Of a stretch of 7,344 bases of DNA, positions 1 through 7,344 are shown piece by piece. The DNA is taken from IMG/VR virus record IMGVR_UViG_2602041568_000002. One strand, 5' to 3'. This DNA is from a virus (lineage: Duplodnaviria; Heunggongvirae; Uroviricota; Caudoviricetes). The position numbers and the translations under genes are program-made. A model generated the notes under the pieces. The model saw only the letters and a list, made by a program, of their open reading frames with translations, made no database searches and was not told the DNA's origin. The first letter of the stretch is position 1. Each line of letters starts with the position of its first letter.

Positions 1-281
1 CTGACCCGCGACGACCATTTTGCGCAGGTCACCTTTATCTGCCGCCACTCATAAGGCGGCGTCCACAGAAAGGCTTTCCAGCCCCCGTGCTCTTCCAGAA
101 ACGACTCCAGTACCGTGGCCTCCTCACGGGGGACAGAAAGCGTCACGCTGTACGTTTTCAGGTTGGCATTCAGCCCGGCAGGCGCTCGCTGGGAATAGCC
201 ATCACCAAAGCGCACCTTTCTTACAGAAGGGGCCGAAGCCACATCCATACCGGGTTTCACTTTCCAGCGGAAGGTTTTCAT
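1..281 (-). CDS. M: Tail tip assembly protein gpM, partial: start codon at 281..279, C-terminal ~16 codons lie beyond the window start
   Basis: Reverse-complement translation from the ATG at 281..279 reads MKTFRWKVKPGMDVAS..., which I recognise as the N-terminus of lambda gpM. It sits immediately downstream of H as in lambda, and its ATG overlaps the H stop (ATGA). Absent from the ORF track only because the frame runs off the window edge without a stop. Confidence 0.88.
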   Translation of the reverse strand, partial: MKTFRWKVKPGMDVASAPSVRKVRFGDGYSQRAPAGLNANLKTYSVTLSVPREEATVLESFLEEHGGWKAFLWTPPYEWRQIKVTCAKWSSRV

Positions 282-2839
282 CGTCCACCTCCGGAGAACA
301 GGCCACCATCACGCATCTGTGTCTGAATTTCATCACGGGCACCCTTGCGGGCCATGTCATACACTGCCTTCATCATCTGTGGACCTGGCAGACCATTCGT
401 ACCGTCGTTCTGAATCACCACGTGATTGTTCTGATTAAAATTAATGCCTTCAGCCCGCCGCATCTGCGCCGGACTTCCGGCACCGCCCACATAACCACCT
501 TCCGCATAGCCCCGCATCAGGCGGTACAGGTTGCCCACGCCAATCCGGCTGGTTGCCTCCTTCGTGAAGACGAATTCACCGCGGTGAACAATTCCCGCTG
601 GCTCATATTTGCCGCCGGTTCCCGTAAATCCTCCGGTCGCAAAATGGAATTTCGCCGCAGCGGCCTGAATGGCTGTACCGCCTGACGCGGATGCGCCGCC
701 ACCAACAGCCCCGCCAATGGCGCTGCCGATACTCCCGACAATCCCCACCATTGCCTGCTTAAGCAGAATTTCTGTCATCATGGACAGCACGGAACGGGTG
801 AAGCTGCGCCAGTTCTGCTCACTGCCGGTCAGCATCGCCGCCATATTCTGCGCAATACCATCAAAGGTCTGCGCGGCTGCACTTTTAACCTGCGACATAC
901 TGTCCGTGGCGCTCTCTTCCCACTCACACCAGCCGGACTTCAGGCCTGCCATCCAGTTCCCGCGAAGCTGGTCTTCAGCCGCCCAGGTCTTTTTCTGCTC
1001 TGACATGACGTTATTCAGCGCCAGCGGATTATCGCCATACTGTTCCTTCAGGCGCTGTTCCGTGGCTTCCCGTTCTGCCTGCCGGTCAGTCACCCCCCGG
1101 CTTTTCGCATCAATGGCGGCCCGTTTTGCCCGTTGCTGCTGTGCGAATTTATCCGCCTGCTGCGCCAGCGCGTTCAGGCGCTCCTGATACGTAACCTTGT
1201 CGCCAAGTGCAGCCAGCTGGCGTTTGTACTCCAGCGTCTCATCTTTATGCGCCAGCAGGGATTTCTCCTGTGCGGATAGCTGGCGACGTTGTGCCGCCTC
1301 CTCCAGTACCGCGAACTGATTTTCAGCCTTCCACAAATCCCGGCGCTGCTGGCTGATTTTCTCATTCGCTCCGGCATGCTTCTCCAGCGTCCGGAGTTCT
1401 GCCTGAAGCGTCAGCAGGGCAGCATGAGCACTGTCTTCCTGACGATCGCCCGCAGACACTTTCACGCCGGACTGTTTCGGCTTTTTCAGCGTCGCTTCAT
1501 AGTCCTTTTTCGCCGCCGCCATCAGCGTGTTGTAATCTGCCTGCAGAATTTTCCCGTCCTTCAGTGCCTTGTTCAGTTCTTCCTGACGGGCGGTATATTT
1601 CTCCAGCGGCGTCTGCAGGCGTTCATAAGCCTTCTGCGCCTCTTCGGTATATTTCAGCCGTGACGCTTCGGTATCGCTCTGCTGCTGCGCATTTTTGTCC
1701 TGTTGAGTCTGCTGCTCAGCCTTCTTTCGGGCGGCTTCAAGCGCAAGACGGGCCTTTTCACGATCATCCCAGTAACGCGCCCGCGCTTCATCGTTAACAA
1801 AATAATCATCCTTGCGCAGATTCCAGATGTCGTCTGCTTTCTTAAACGCAGCCTCTGCCTTAATCAGCATCTCCTGCGCGGTATCAGGACGACCAATATC
1901 CAGCACCGCATCCCACATGGATTTGAAGGCCCGCGCTGTCCTGTCTGCCCAGGTCTCCAGCGTGCCCATGTTCTCTTTCAGGCGGCGGGTCTGGTCATCA
2001 AACCCTTTCGTTGCGGCCTCGTTCGCCGCCTGCAATGCCCCGGCTTCATCGCCGGAACGCTGCAACTGAGCAACATACGCAATCTGCTCCGCCGTCACGT
2101 TATGGAACTGGCGTGCCATCGCTGTCAGCCCTGACGTCGGGTCTGTGGTCAGCTTCCCGAAGGCTTCAGCGACCTTGTCCACCTCCACGCCGGATGCAGA
2201 GGAGAAACGCGCCACACTCTGGCTGATGGATGCAATCTGAGCCTCACCGCTTACTCCCGCCTTAACCAGTGCGCTGAGTGACTCGCTGGTCTGGTTAAAC
2301 GTCAGCCCTGCCGCCTGCCCGGCTCTGGACAGGACCAGCATGCGATCTGCCGTCAGACCCGACTGATTGCCGGAAAGGACCAGCGTTTTGTTGAAATCGG
2401 ACAGGGTTGAGTTGCCCTGATACCAGGCATACGCCAGCGCACCGGTCGCCACCGCCAGCGAGGTGGCCCCGACCATCGGCAGGGTGATCGCACCGGCAAG
2501 CCCCCTGAACATGGGGATCATCCCGCCGAAGGAGTCCTTAACCTGACCACCCTGTTGCAGCAGGATCAGCCACGGACTTTGCCCGCCTGCAAGCTGCGTG
2601 GCCACGTCGGTGAACTGTGCAGGCAGCATACGCATGGCGGCTTTATACTGCCCGACGGAAATCCCCGCTTTCTGTGCAGCCAGCGCCTGTCGGCTCAGCG
2701 ACTGTTCAACGACTGCCGCTGTTTTTTTCGCATCACTTTCCGTACCGGAAAAATGACGCCTGACTCTGGCCATCTGCTCGTCAAATCTGGCCGCATCCAG
2801 ACTTAAATCAACGACCAGATCGCCTACCGGTTCAGCCAT
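278..2839 (-). CDS. H: Tail tape measure protein gpH (853 aa)
   Basis: 853-aa ORF starting MAEPVGDLVVDLSLDAARFDEQ, the same length as lambda gpH and recognisably the same protein along its whole length. It has a long Ala/Gln/Lys/Glu/Arg-rich central region (typical coiled-coil tape measure), a Gly-rich hydrophobic segment and a conserved C-terminus ...DEIQTQMRDGGLFSGGGR. AGGAGGAG Shine-Dalgarno ~8 nt upstream of the ATG at 2839. Confidence 0.97.
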   Translation of the reverse strand: MAEPVGDLVVDLSLDAARFDEQMARVRRHFSGTESDAKKTAAVVEQSLSRQALAAQKAGISVGQYKAAMRMLPAQFTDVATQLAGGQSPWLILLQQGGQVKDSFGGMIPMFRGLAGAITLPMVGATSLAVATGALAYAWYQGNSTLSDFNKTLVLSGNQSGLTADRMLVLSRAGQAAGLTFNQTSESLSALVKAGVSGEAQIASISQSVARFSSASGVEVDKVAEAFGKLTTDPTSGLTAMARQFHNVTAEQIAYVAQLQRSGDEAGALQAANEAATKGFDDQTRRLKENMGTLETWADRTARAFKSMWDAVLDIGRPDTAQEMLIKAEAAFKKADDIWNLRKDDYFVNDEARARYWDDREKARLALEAARKKAEQQTQQDKNAQQQSDTEASRLKYTEEAQKAYERLQTPLEKYTARQEELNKALKDGKILQADYNTLMAAAKKDYEATLKKPKQSGVKVSAGDRQEDSAHAALLTLQAELRTLEKHAGANEKISQQRRDLWKAENQFAVLEEAAQRRQLSAQEKSLLAHKDETLEYKRQLAALGDKVTYQERLNALAQQADKFAQQQRAKRAAIDAKSRGVTDRQAEREATEQRLKEQYGDNPLALNNVMSEQKKTWAAEDQLRGNWMAGLKSGWCEWEESATDSMSQVKSAAAQTFDGIAQNMAAMLTGSEQNWRSFTRSVLSMMTEILLKQAMVGIVGSIGSAIGGAVGGGASASGGTAIQAAAAKFHFATGGFTGTGGKYEPAGIVHRGEFVFTKEATSRIGVGNLYRLMRGYAEGGYVGGAGSPAQMRRAEGINFNQNNHVVIQNDGTNGLPGPQMMKAVYDMARKGARDEIQTQMRDGGLFSGGGR

Positions 2840-3266
2840 ACCGGACTCCTCCTGCGATCCCTTCTGATACTGTCATCAGCATTACGTCATCCTCCGTCAT
2901 GTCCGCCACATCCGGGGAAGCGGGGATAACTTCATTCCCGTCCGGGCCAAAGCGGACACCTCCGGCAAGCCCTGCCGCTTTCTGCATCAGCACATCATCT
3001 TCAGGCTCTTCGTCAGCCTCGCGCCGGTTCAGCAGACTGAAATCCAGCGGATGCATATCCGGATCGCTGAAAAACAGGCTGAGCACGGTGTACGTCAGCC
3101 CGGAAAAGTGCATATCCAGCAGAACATCATGAAAATAATGGGTACTGTAAAAGCGGTGCCAGTCGGCATACTCCGTGGATGACATCCCGGCAAGCATGGC
3201 ACGCCAGTCGGGTCTCCCCATCTCACGCGCCAGTTTCAGGGCAAAACTCAGCTCACCGTCGAACAC
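2832..3266 (-). CDS. T: T segment of the tail assembly chaperone gpG-T; no independent start, expressed only as a -1 frameshift fusion with G (fusion spans 2832..3670)
   Basis: 144-codon open frame (..FDGELSFALKLAREMGRPDWRAMLAGMSSTEYADWHRF...) recognised as lambda gpT. Its first codon is GTG, directly 3' of the slippery heptamer in the -1 frame relative to G. The frame ends with TGA at 2834..2832, overlapping the H start by 8 nt. Confidence 0.9.
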   Translation of the reverse strand: MFDGELSFALKLAREMGRPDWRAMLAGMSSTEYADWHRFYSTHYFHDVLLDMHFSGLTYTVLSLFFSDPDMHPLDFSLLNRREADEEPEDDVLMQKAAGLAGGVRFGPDGNEVIPASPDVADMTEDDVMLMTVSEGIAGGVRYG

Positions 3267-3670
3267 TTTCCCGCAGAAACAGGCTCTGCGGGCCCGGCGT
3301 CCTCTGTCTGTTCAGGGGCATTATTCACCACAAACTCATACATACCAGACAGCCGGTACACCACGTTTTCAGCATGAGAAATTGCCTCCGTGGGCCAGGT
3401 GGTAAGCACTTCCTGCTCAATCTGTTTAACGGCTTCATTCATGGACGGCATCTGCGTCTTCTGCGGATGGTTATGCCACAGGGACATCGCCACCAGAAAC
3501 GCGCCGGTTCTGATGGCGTCTTCCACAGTAAACTTCCGGTTGCTGTCTGACTCCGCCTGTTCTGCCTGCCGTTTCATCAGGGCGAGATGCTCAATGCGCT
3601 GCAGGGCTGACAGTTCAGAAAGCGTGACGGTCACACCGTTATGTTCAAATGATTCGGTTTTCAGGAACAT
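3248..3670 (-). CDS. G: Tail assembly chaperone gpG (140 aa)
   Basis: ORF MFLKTESFEHNGVTVTLSELSALQRIEHLALMKRQAEQ...PVSAGKCSTVS recognised as lambda gpG at the correct length. GGAGAG Shine-Dalgarno in the 15-nt V-G spacer. The slippery site lies 6 codons before its stop. Confidence 0.95.
   Translation of the reverse strand: MFLKTESFEHNGVTVTLSELSALQRIEHLALMKRQAEQAESDSNRKFTVEDAIRTGAFLVAMSLWHNHPQKTQMPSMNEAVKQIEQEVLTTWPTEAISHAENVVYRLSGMYEFVVNNAPEQTEDAGPAEPVSAGKCSTVS
3266..3272 (-). other. Programmed -1 ribosomal frameshift slippery heptamer G GGA AAG (G-T recoding site)
   Basis: Plus strand reads ctttccc at 3266..3272, so the minus strand reads GGGAAAG. In the G frame it is GCG-GGA-AAG (A-G-K, residues 133-135 of G). 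After a -1 slip the next codon is GTG at 3266..3264, the first codon of the T frame. Position and sequence match the classical lambda G/G-T site. Confidence 0.88.
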
Positions 3671-3685
3671 CGCTGACTCTCCGGA

Positions 3686-4426
3686 TTAACTGGCGGTGAC
3701 GGTAATTTCTGCAACCGCAGCAAACTCACCATTACCGGATACAACCGGAATGTTGACCTTGCCTGCAGCAACGCCGTTCACGGTGATGGTCATACCACTG
3801 ACCGACACGGTGGCTTTTGTTTTATCCGCAGACACCGCACGAAAGCTCTTGTCGGTTACGCCCTCCGGCTGGAAGGCCACGGTCAGCGTGGTGCTCTGCC
3901 CTTTCACCACCGAGGTGCTGGCAGGCGTCACGGTCATGCCGGTTGCCGCTGTTACCGTGCTGCGATCTTCTGCCATCGACGGACGTCCCACATTGGTGAC
4001 TTTCACCGTGCGGGTGATCACTTCCTTCGCCGTCACCGCCTTACCGATACTGCTGACCCAGCCACGGAACACATCGACCGTGCCGTTCGGGAAGCGGATT
4101 TTATAGGCACGGGTATCGCCTTCATTAAACCACGCCAGCAGCGCCTGCTGCCCCTGCTCTCCGGGCATCCACGCCAGCGTGAAGCTGGTATCTCCGGCAG
4201 ATTTCTGCCCCTGCCCGGTCGCAGTCCAGTCTGCATCTTCATCATCGAGATAGCTGTCGTCATAGGACTCAGCGGTCAGTTCGCCGGGCGTCAGGTCTTT
4301 AACTTTTGCCAGACGCGACCAGTCAACGTCTGAAAGCGGATTCGCATAAGGGTCACCGCTCCCCTTATAAACCCACAGGGTGGTCCCGGCACCTTTCACC
4401 GGCATTACAGGATTTGGTACAGGCAT
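3686..4426 (-). CDS. V: Major tail tube protein gpV (246 aa), with C-terminal Ig-like domain
   Basis: Track ORF 3686..4456 contains [43 protein letters not shown]..., recognised as lambda gpV. I place the start at the internal ATG at 4426 (246 aa, as in lambda) because it is preceded by GAGGA about 4 nt upstream; the track's ATG at 4456 would overlap the end of U and has no comparable ribosome-binding site. Confidence 0.93.
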
Positions 4427-4433
4427 AGCGTCC

Positions 4434-4829
4434 TCACATTTCATAGGTAATGACATAAGTCAGATCGGCTGAACTCCACAGGCCCGCATCATCGTCGCGC
4501 CGGTAGTCATAGCCGCTGGCCACCATACTGGTGATCAAATCTGACAGTGCCGGGATATCACTCATCACCGGATAAATCCGGGACTCCATCCACGCATCCA
4601 GCTCTGAATCCGGCACCTGAGCAGGCAGGAAAACTTCGATATGCAGCTCCGCCTGCCAGGTATCGCTGTCCAGCTCTTCGCCCGTGTATTCAGCGCCGGT
4701 GAGATAAACGGCAACTGCCGGAAAATCCTCTTCGTCAAAAACAACGGGGCGACCATCAAACAGCGTCGCCCCGTGTTCATGCTGCTCGAGTGCATCCAGC
4801 ACTGCGGCACGGAGTTCAGTATGTTTCAT
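4434..4829 (-). CDS. U: Tail terminator protein gpU (131 aa)
   Basis: [31 protein letters not shown]...[10 protein letters not shown] recognised as lambda gpU at the correct length. Its ATG (4829..4827) overlaps the Z stop (4828..4826) as ATGA. Confidence 0.95.
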
Positions 4830-5404
4830 CGCTTTATTACCATCCTCAGTTGATGCTGCAGCGCATAGCCCAGCTCTTTCGGAAGACGCTCACGCCGTAT
4901 CCGCTCAATATTCTGTTTAAACGCCGTGGTCAGCGGCACCGCCATCGGGATTTTCACCACATCAATGGGGTAACGGTTTTTCCCGGCCACACGCTGCATG
5001 ACATGCCAGCGGCCATTTTTCAGTTGCTGAATAAACGCGCCGGGAATACGACGGTTTCCCACCACAAGCACGCTGCCGCCACCTTTCAGGGCTGAACGCT
5101 GCCCCTTTTTACGACGCCTGCGTCGGGACAGGACAATCCGCGCGTTACCCAGCTTTATTACGGGCAAATCCCCCCGGTTAACCTTGATTCTGGCCTGCGG
5201 ATTTTTGACCGTGGCCCTTTTCAGCCTGGCCCTTTCCTTTACCAGTTTCCGGCGTACCTTTGTCTCACGGGCAACCTGTGACGCCGACTGCGATATCGCG
5301 GATGAAGCAACGCGGTTAATGGCCATTGCGGCGGCACCGGGCACCGCCGTTCTGCTGATACGGCTGAGGTTTTCAACGGCCTGCTCAAGACCTTTTATGG
5401 CCAT
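4826..5404 (-). CDS. Z: Tail completion protein gpZ (192 aa)
   Basis: ORF MAIKGLEQAVENLSRISRTAVPGAAAMAINRVASSAISQ... recognised as lambda gpZ; length and position between FII and U match lambda. Confidence 0.95.
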   Translation of the reverse strand: MAIKGLEQAVENLSRISRTAVPGAAAMAINRVASSAISQSASQVARETKVRRKLVKERARLKRATVKNPQARIKVNRGDLPVIKLGNARIVLSRRRRRKKGQRSALKGGGSVLVVGNRRIPGAFIQQLKNGRWHVMQRVAGKNRYPIDVVKIPMAVPLTTAFKQNIERIRRERLPKELGYALQHQLRMVIKR

Positions 5405-5415
5405 ACATCCCCCTT

Positions 5416-5769
5416 TCAGCGGCGACGGTTAACGGCAGGCGGTACGCCCCGCCCAAGCCAGAGATGACAGCTTCCGCCATCATCCGGCGAAATCCGGTCT
5501 ATCCAGAAGTTTTCCTCACCGATGGTCAGCGTGTCGCCGCGCCGCAGCTGCCGCACATCATCAGTCCGGACAAACAGGAACGGGCTGGAGCCTTCAACGC
5601 GCACGCCCTGTCCGGCATAGCTGATATTTTCAGGATCATCAAAAACACCACGTATCACAACACCGGACTGCTCACCGGATGTCATGGTGGCTGACGTTCC
5701 CATGTACCCGCGTATCGTTTCATCGGCGCGGGCAATGGCAGCATCGAACAGGTTATCGAAATCAGCCAC
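5416..5769 (-). CDS. FII: Head-tail joining / head completion protein gpFII (117 aa)
   Basis: ORF MADFDNLFDAAIARADETIRGYMGTSATMTSGEQSGVVIRGVFDDPENISYAGQGVRVEGS... recognised as lambda gpFII; 11-nt spacers to FI and Z. Confidence 0.95.
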   Translation of the reverse strand: MADFDNLFDAAIARADETIRGYMGTSATMTSGEQSGVVIRGVFDDPENISYAGQGVRVEGSSPFLFVRTDDVRQLRRGDTLTIGEENFWIDRISPDDGGSCHLWLGRGVPPAVNRRR

Positions 5770-5780
5770 AGCGCCTCCCG

Positions 5781-6176
5781 TTATTGCATTCTGGCCAGGC
5801 CGCGTTCTGTCATTTCGGCTGCCACACCGGCAGAGACACGGAACGCCGTTCCCGGCAGCACAAATGCCACAGTGTCATCCCGCGTGGCGTGAAGTGCATC
5901 AGTATGCAGCGTCACCAGTGCCACAACCGTGACCAGATCAGCCGTATCAGTCACGGTATCCGGCTGCGCTGATACAACCTCATTTTCATGTCCGGTCAGC
6001 GCATTTTCCGGGCTGACAGATGTGTCCTGACCAGCAGCGTCATCCGTGTCATCAAGCTCCTCTTCCAGCTCTGCCACACGGAGTGCCAGTTCTTCTTTCG
6101 TCCCCGTCAGGCTGACATCACGGTTCAGTTGCTCACCCAGCACCTGAAGACGGGCAATCAGTTCATCTTTCGTCAT
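5781..6176 (-). CDS. FI: DNA-packaging / head assembly accessory protein gpFI (131 aa here)
   Basis: Track ORF 5781..6215 contains MTKDELIARLQVLGEQLNRDVSLTGTKEELALRVAELEEELDD...AFRVSAGVAAEMTERGLARMQ, recognised as lambda gpFI. I place the start at the ATG at 6176, preceded by GGAGGAG about 5 nt upstream. The track's upstream ATG (6215) lies inside the intergenic hairpin stem and has no ribosome-binding site. Confidence 0.9.
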   Translation of the reverse strand: MTKDELIARLQVLGEQLNRDVSLTGTKEELALRVAELEEELDDTDDAAGQDTSVSPENALTGHENEVVSAQPDTVTDTADLVTVVALVTLHTDALHATRDDTVAFVLPGTAFRVSAGVAAEMTERGLARMQ

Positions 6177-6197
6177 GGACTCCTCCACAGAGAGAAA

Positions 6198-6215
6198 ATG
6201 GCCCCGAAGGGCCAT
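6198..6215 (-). promoter_or_regulatory. Intergenic RNA stem-loop between E and FI (7-bp perfect stem, UUCG tetraloop); function unknown
   Basis: Minus-strand RNA reads 5'-AUGGCCC-UUCG-GGGCCAU-3', starting 2 nt after the E stop codon and followed by UUUCUCUCUGUG and the FI Shine-Dalgarno. Seen directly in the sequence; coordinates are anchored to ORF boundaries and may be off by 1 nt. Confidence 0.45.
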
Positions 6216-6217
6216 GA

Positions 6218-7096
6218 TTACGCCAGTTGTACGGACACGAACGCATCAGGGTCAGCCAGCAGCATCAGCGGTGCTGACTGAATCATGGTGAACTCACGCG
6301 CCGGATCGCCGGTGGTCACCCAGTTTTTCGGGTAGCGGGCAGAGGCGTTAATACCTTCGCGCTGTGCGTCCGCATCCTGAATGCAGCCATAGGTGCGCAG
6401 ACCGCGTGCCTGAGTGTTCCCCAGCACCATCGTGTTGTCCGGCAGGAAGTTCTTTTTGACGTCGTTTTCCACGTACTGTCCGGAATACACGACGATCGCC
6501 GTATCGCCATACATCCCCTTATAGGACACCGCTTCGCCCAGATCTTTTACCGCTGTCTCCAGCTCGGAATGAGAGCCGCGACGGGTATCCAGCTTCTCCT
6601 TGACGGCTTTGAAGGAACGGAACAGCGCCCAGCCTTTCGGATCAAACACGATGATATTCACCACACCGCTGGCGTTCAGCGCGTAGGCTTCGATATCGTC
6701 GGTCGGGTCATACGTGGACTTGTCACGCTTGCTCCACTCCGTACCGCCGGACTGCGTGATGTTGTTCGCCACACTGCGGCCCATATCCACTTCAACCGGA
6801 TCGAAGGCTTCACCGGTCATGGTATATTTGCCCTTAAGCACGGCAGAAACGGCCTGCATCTCTTCGACCTGAGCAATGGCCAGCTCTTCGTCTCGCATGT
6901 TCTGCAGAATGATGCGACGGCGGCGGTAAGCCGGGTCCGCCAGATTCTGTGGATCTTCATCCGGCAGGCGACGCAGGGTCATCTGCGGATTCACCTCATG
7001 CTTCGGCTTGACATATCCCGGTGTAAATTCAGAGGTGGAGCCGCCACGGGAGCGGATAACCTCACCGGAAACAATCGGCGAAACGTACAGCGCCAT
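6218..7096 (-). CDS. E: Major capsid protein gpE, 5'-truncated by the assembly gap (codons ~50-341 present)
   Basis: Downstream of the N run the ORF reads MALYVSPIVSGEVIRSRGGSTSEFTPGYVKPKHEVNPQMTLRRLPDEDPQ...DPDAFVSVQLA, recognised as lambda gpE from about residue 50 to the C-terminus. The 18 codons upstream of the Ns in the track ORF ([18 protein letters not shown]) are an out-of-frame read-through of D, not part of E. Confidence 0.93.
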   Translation of the reverse strand: MALYVSPIVSGEVIRSRGGSTSEFTPGYVKPKHEVNPQMTLRRLPDEDPQNLADPAYRRRRIILQNMRDEELAIAQVEEMQAVSAVLKGKYTMTGEAFDPVEVDMGRSVANNITQSGGTEWSKRDKSTYDPTDDIEAYALNASGVVNIIVFDPKGWALFRSFKAVKEKLDTRRGSHSELETAVKDLGEAVSYKGMYGDTAIVVYSGQYVENDVKKNFLPDNTMVLGNTQARGLRTYGCIQDADAQREGINASARYPKNWVTTGDPAREFTMIQSAPLMLLADPDAFVSVQLA

Positions 7097-7143
7097 NNNN
7101 NNNNNNNNNNNNNNNNNNNNNNNNNNNNNNNNNNNNNNNNNNN
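7097..7143. other. Run of 47 N (assembly or scaffold gap, or masked bases)
   Basis: Direct observation: 47 consecutive n characters. Confidence 1.
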
Positions 7144-7344
7144 GCGGTCCGTTTTTTCGTCTCGTCGCTGGCAGCCTCCGGCCAGAGCACATCCTCATAA
7201 CGGAACGTGCCGGACTTGTAGAACGTCAGCGTGGTGCTGGTCTGGTCAGCAGCAACCGCAAGAATGCCAACGGCAGCACCGTCGGTGGTGCCATCCCACG
7301 CAACCAGCTTACGGGTGGAGGTGTCCAGCATCAGCGGGGTCATT
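7144..7344 (-). CDS. D: Head decoration protein gpD, partial: N-terminus beyond the window end, last ~10 codons lost in the N gap
   Basis: Frame reads ..[66 protein letters not shown] before hitting the Ns, recognised as residues ~35-100 of lambda gpD. The ATG at 7343..7341 is an internal Met, not the true start. Confidence 0.9.

Follow-up and report, generated by a model that had tools for sequence, protein, structure and literature searches.

The question raised by this locus is whether a run of 47 ambiguous bases (N), lying between the head decoration gene D and the major capsid gene E of a lambda-like prophage, stands for 47 real bases left by a deletion that would make both genes defective, or for an assembly join whose recorded length means little. 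A preliminary description of the DNA had set out both answers and had picked neither. We analyzed the whole stretch that carries the run, 7,344 nt in length, which is called the window in what follows.

A scan of the full 7,344-nt window found one N run, at 7097..7143 (47 bases); an N run is deterministically part of the record, which leaves no role for chance. All genes of the window lie on the minus strand, and their order, D-E-FI-FII-Z-U-V-G-T-H-M, is that of the lambda late operon. The parts that matter here are these:

7097..7143, no strand: the 47-N run, an unresolved join of two contigs in AURV01000022.1, where relatives have about 233 nt
7144..7344, minus strand: D fragment on the 201-nt contig, codons 34-100 plus 2 nt of codon 101 (by translation and PF02924); 7344 is the end of the record
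6218..7096, minus strand: partial E, from codon 50 to the stop, 292 aa of the normal 341 (by translation and PF03864)
1..7096, minus strand: the 7096-nt contig, carrying E (partial), FI, FII, Z, U, V, G, T, H (853 aa) and M (partial), collinear with lambda-like prophages with no indels

On the D side, positions 7343..7144 translate as MTPLMLDT...ASDETKKRT, corresponding to residues 34-100 of a lambda-type D protein followed by 2 nt of codon 101, and the fragment falls within the head decoration protein D family (PF02924, HDPD; E-value 1.1e-13; 51.7 bits against a cutoff of 29.1; profile positions 35-104 of 116). The 201-nt contig that bears it is 99.0-99.5% identical to relatives. On the E side, 7096..6218 translates as MALYVSPIVSGEV...VQLA*, a product of 292 aa that runs from codon 50 of E to the stop and belongs to the major capsid protein E family (PF03864, Phage_cap_E; E-value 5.1e-58; profile positions 47-328 of 329). 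The A of the ATG for M50 is position 7096, the first base past the gap. Thus, the preliminary description, which had the gap take out the D/E junction with D stopping at about codon 100 and E resuming at about codon 50, agrees with the translations, in which D covers 34-100 and E begins at exactly 50. D codons 101-110 and E codons 1-49 sit under the N run, and relatives carry both.

Two minus-strand open reading frames cross the 47 N. The first, a 93-aa "D" frame at 7062..7343, is also called as a gene on AURV01000022.1 (positions 1..283 of that record), and the second, a 326-aa frame at 6218..7198, passes into the frame of E. Both are artefacts of N translated as X. Elsewhere in the window, the heptamer GGGAAAG, the -1 slippery site of lambda G/GT, is found at 3266..3272 (minus strand), where the G frame (3248..3670) overlaps the T frame (2832..3266). 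It occurs once against about 1.1 occurrences expected by chance, so that its position alone is meaningful.

The origin of the N run was traced through the exact 292-aa truncated E product, such as a gene caller would emit from the edge of a gap, which matched the public WGS record AURV01000022.1 (GCA_000467205.1). The window proved to be the reverse complement of this entire record, 7344 nt with the N included; the same 47 N lie at 202-248 of the record, where they separate a 7096-nt contig from a 201-nt one. Because the window is a whole draft WGS record of two contigs, the N run is a scaffold join, and its length can be no better than an estimate from paired reads. Two-piece collinear matches showed that both flanks belong to one locus in relatives, with order and orientation kept. 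Furthermore, 47 is not a conventional fixed placeholder, and a poor estimate from paired reads is therefore a likelier origin of this length than an arbitrary choice. Masking by the data provider was considered as a source of the N and ruled out, since the public record holds identical N.

Our literature searches found no paper describing AURV or GCA_000467205. A Salmonella DMA-1 sister paper was considered as the source of AURV and was ruled out, its accession being ATFA. The adjacent accession AURX was assembled from 2x101-nt Illumina reads with an insert of about 330 nt in CLC Workbench, and has 1,480 N inside its "contigs" (PMC4099087). AURW and AURX are adjacent accessions from a single laboratory's series, and, judging from accession order only, AURV may have been made by the same pipeline.

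We then determined the distance between the two flanks in related sequences. It was exactly 233 nt in two lambda-like phages of the lambda group, with the flanks collinear, and this stretch consists of 1 nt, 9 codons and the stop of D (AFAGTAISIV*), a 55-nt spacer and 49 codons of E. The shortfall in the window is 186 nt. From lambda lengths, the preliminary description had put the missing material at about 10 D codons plus stop, a spacer of about 55 nt and 49 E codons, roughly 235 nt in all, and the shortfall at about 190 nt; these figures were right to within 2-4 nt, and the comparison of the flanks with a lambda-type D-E region that it had proposed as a check gave the collinear result just described.

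The same distance was found wherever relatives were compared. Among the phage records listed, the region that measures 745 nt in the window spanned 931 nt in all 25, and the best 40 complete E. coli genomes had this 931-nt span without exception (40/40). Over the whole window, comparison with complete E. coli genomes was collinear, with 7530 nt against 7344. When 3305 ranked E. coli records were evenly sampled, each of the 56 records with two flanks had 231-233 nt, and ten assemblies encoding the window's exact tape-measure protein, with DNA identity of up to 99.65%, had 233 nt. A 60-nt flank search of genome_contigs recovered a Shigella flexneri chromosome with the same D-E distance at 92% identity, and a flank search of viral_contigs returned at least 120 relatives, the best of them 97.5% identical to the window. 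Among the fetched loci, 130 were measurable, and these had 233 nt (113 loci), 232 nt (12), 234 nt (3), 230 nt (1) or 139 nt (1). The 232-nt loci mostly have one T fewer in the spacer, and all but one of the departures from 232-233 nt came from a look-up restricted to broken E genes.

A direct search for the window's own arrangement, as a pattern of flank, 47 unspecified bases and flank, gave 0 matches in genome_contigs (species-representative genomes) and viral_contigs (IMG/VR); as a control, the pattern matches the window across its N. A 47-nt junction was likewise absent from the phage and E. coli records that were listed or sampled. One complete genome, E. coli MS 119-7 (NZ_CP146653.1, 3227994..3238230), has the 7.5-kb module stretched to 10.2 kb by an IS66-like ISCro1 and a tnpA accessory gene.

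The spacer that relatives carry between D and E folds into a hairpin with a 9-bp GC-rich stem and a U-run (-14.5 kcal/mol; z -2.0), which the HK629 annotation gives as a rho-independent terminator. A scan for consensus terminators did not call this D-E hairpin.

How far a recorded N length can be trusted was addressed with a model and with a documented case. In the model, a naive paired-read estimator subtracts the mean observed in-contig distance from the library mean to obtain the gap, and admits a pair only if each of its reads lies wholly within the 7096-nt or the 201-nt contig; the parameters were those of AURX (101-nt reads, 330-nt mean insert). For a true gap of 233 nt beside a 201-nt contig, it returned values from 104 N at an SD of 40 to 31 N at an SD of 120, with 47.2 at an SD of 100, and over a wider parameter grid many ordinary short-insert libraries gave 20-85 N. 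A true gap of 47 nt came out as about 38 N when the insert distribution was narrow, and since such a gap also yields small estimates, the model does not discriminate between the two. That 233 nt could have been recorded as 47 N is, on these simulations, a plausibility argument and not evidence. Gap-size estimation is steadier between large contigs (PMC4262078).

The documented case is a scaffold-level E. coli draft that carries the window's tape-measure protein (GCA_002110275.1, ADJY01000022.1). It has a 374-N gap inside E, at 5902..6275 of the fetched locus, the flanks of which overlap by 139 nt with 0 mismatches, and the recorded length is wrong by more than 500 nt. As this draft documents, N lengths in gene E are demonstrably unreliable. 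The draft is also an example of the poor scaffolding of lambdoid prophages in older assemblies, with N runs of 1964, 374, 961 and 158 in its prophage. Of a different kind are lone N bases in three IMG/VR contigs, at positions 8240 and 10180 of L132, 901 of L134 and 5990 of L139, where segments of different alleles of the tape-measure gene abut; L132 carries the H probe twice, and these contigs look like chimeric or concatenated ones.

The remainder of the record was compared with intact relatives. The 26 differences between the 7096-nt contig and the intact relative L147 are all substitutions, with 0 indels. FI, FII, Z, U, V, G, T and H are full length and equal to those of intact relatives, with nine full-length genes in the record, and no signs of decay (frameshifts, truncations or IS elements) were found in the neighboring genes within the window. 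The substitutions relative to L147 are clustered, with 14 of them within 78 nt of U (4729..4806) and 4 within 22 nt of H (572..593), and the two clusters look like small patches of mosaic recombination, not scattered point mutations. In five loci, L147 among them (the others being L034, L056, L107 and L145), the DNA of E from codon 50 to the stop is identical to that of the window, and the N-terminus of E is intact in 5/5; among all measurable relatives other than those selected for a broken E, every one has 49 intact codons there.

Several observations bear on why an assembly might break at this site. Among the 40 closest complete genomes, in which the D-E region is at least 99.7% identical to that of the window, 33 contain 2-3 copies of the region, which favors the collapse of a repeat; over all carriers, the region is present at 4853 places in 3292 genomes, and few columns of the region vary less than those of the hidden stretch and its edges. 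A contig of another draft, BENU01000043.1, begins 2 nt from the window's gap edge. Furthermore, the 233 nt contain the ends of 7 of the 120 IMG/VR loci, and three of these ends fall at the T5 run of E codons 26-28, no more than 2 nt apart. The ends of loci show an enrichment of about 2-3 fold over the 700 nt upstream of E codon 50; this is soft evidence because the ends of IMG/VR loci may include storage or prophage-prediction boundaries. Insertion of an IS element was considered as the cause of the break and set aside as unparsimonious, since the 233 nt of unique flanking sequence would still assemble onto the flanks.

Altogether, we conclude with a probability of roughly 0.9 that the 47 N are an assembly artefact, namely a scaffold join in the draft AURV01000022.1, whose recorded length does not represent a number of bases in the genome. 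Of the two branches of the preliminary description, the placeholder is supported, the draft record being two contigs plus N and relatives having 231-233 nt at the site, and the real deletion, in which D and E would both be defective, is left without support, with 47 nt seen in no public sequence that was searched and no decay in the rest of the record. We propose that a scaffolding step would have joined the 7096-nt and 201-nt contigs and filled the distance with 47 N, a number that may be a read-pair estimate or otherwise not measured. The genome most probably has the usual stretch of about 233 nt at this point, that is, the last 10 codons of D, the 55-nt spacer, which would hold the terminator-like hairpin and the ribosome-binding region of E, and E codons 1-49. 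The break itself may have arisen because this conserved D-E stretch is common to co-resident lambdoid prophages and would have collapsed in a short-read graph, and the low figure could reflect the downward bias expected beside very short contigs with short-insert libraries. As an unresolved contig join, the run has a length that is uninformative on any loss of capsid genes.

The alternative that survives best accepts the assembly gap and places a small real lesion of E or of the D-E spacer beneath it, such as a T5 to T4 contraction at E codons 26-28 or a partial deletion, so that no capsids would be made. Smaller real lesions of this stretch are present in a minority of relatives. A contraction of the T5 run to T4 (offset 164-168 of the hidden region) was seen in L156 and L162, and also in L153 and L160, in several independent assemblies that have the window's exact C-terminal E protein; its product is a 47-aa frame ending in TGG-TAA, followed 2 nt on by the 292-aa frame from Met50. 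Either a prophage lineage with a genuine frameshift or a homopolymer error of sequencing could account for it. Three other independent contigs (L088, L093 and L120) break exactly at the T5 run, and L157 has a +1 insertion in the same stretch of E. One further draft (GCA_026280165.1, JALZQF010000110.1; 637..777 of the fetched locus) has a 94-nt D-E deletion, with the junction ...GTTTAACCT|AAGAAATTTAAG..., that takes E codons 1-16 together with the RBS and the terminator hairpin; the DNA of its E from codon 50 to the stop is identical to that of the window, and its I and J genes are fragmented.

These genuine-looking lesions argue for a hidden lesion in the window. However, the look-up that supplied the supporting cases used the exact 292-aa truncated E protein and can return broken genes only, and it therefore says nothing on the frequency of lesions, whereas the measurable relatives gathered without that bias all have an intact N-terminus of E. 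The 231-233 nt found in 56/56 sampled complete genomes, and the intact state of the window's other nine genes, also speak against it. In addition, some of the broken cases seem to stem from error-prone assemblies, since homopolymer errors or broken genes are numerous in L153, L154 and L160. We consider a small lesion beneath the gap improbable. A related proposal is that the assembly broke because the D-E copy of this strain differs from the others, by a T5 frameshift, by a partial deletion as in JALZQF010000110.1 or by an insertion, and that the gap thereby conceals a defective capsid gene; we regard this as unlikely, if slightly less so. If it were true, the concealed defect would add one more decaying lambdoid prophage and not a new kind of element.

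A real deletion of about 186 nt would mean that the 47 N are 47 real but unread bases, with D roughly complete and E starting from Met50 without its N-terminal arm. The arithmetic fits, for the D tail would take 31 nt and leave 16 nt before the ATG of codon 50, and at least one relative, the draft with the 94-nt loss, has a real junction deletion. Against this, no sequence with 47 nt at the site was matched in genome_contigs, in viral_contigs or in the listed and sampled E. coli and phage records; a unique junction would be expected to assemble cleanly, without N; the rest of the record is undegraded; and N-run lengths in scaffolds of this kind are demonstrably unreliable. We judge such a deletion very improbable. 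A hidden lesion has a low probability, and the specific 186-nt deletion a lower one still. Finally, a pre-submission mask over an adaptor or contaminant span at a chimeric join, in which case the N would be neither a distance estimate nor genome sequence, is suggested by general submission practice (a length of 47 nt would suit a sequencing adaptor, and the 201 nt of the far piece barely exceed the usual 200-nt minimum) but is highly improbable too, since the two flanks come from one locus, correctly ordered and oriented and plausibly spaced, as would be expected of a paired-read join more than of a random chimera, and the CLC assembly of the neighboring project has scaffold N in its contigs (PMC4099087).

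The consequences are a matter of annotation hygiene only. The record gives no ground to call the prophage defective, and neither the 292-aa "truncated capsid protein" nor the 93-aa D read-through should be called from it; both have already been output by gene callers. The locus, a head/tail module of the ordinary lambda-like type, and the gap, an ordinary within-scaffold one, hold no biological novelty.

Comparison with known systems places the window as follows. Its flanks are 97.7% identical to those of the lambda group (HK629, HK630, DE3 and Lambda) and up to 99.9% identical to those of E. coli prophages. The gene order is the same as at the lambda D-E junction and the G/T slippery site GGGAAAG is in place, whereas the junction itself is hidden here. 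The window shares with defective lambdoid prophages (JALZQF010000110.1, and Logan contigs with the T5 to T4 contraction) the same 292-aa C-terminal E product and the same affected stretch; in those prophages, however, the lesion is read base by base and often accompanied by further broken genes, whereas in the window the junction is unread and the other genes are intact. With the within-scaffold N gaps of draft short-read assemblies, it has in common the collinear flanks, the 201-nt contig at one side and a non-conventional length, and the sole special point is that this length is 186 nt under the homologous distance, which is within the output of a biased estimator.
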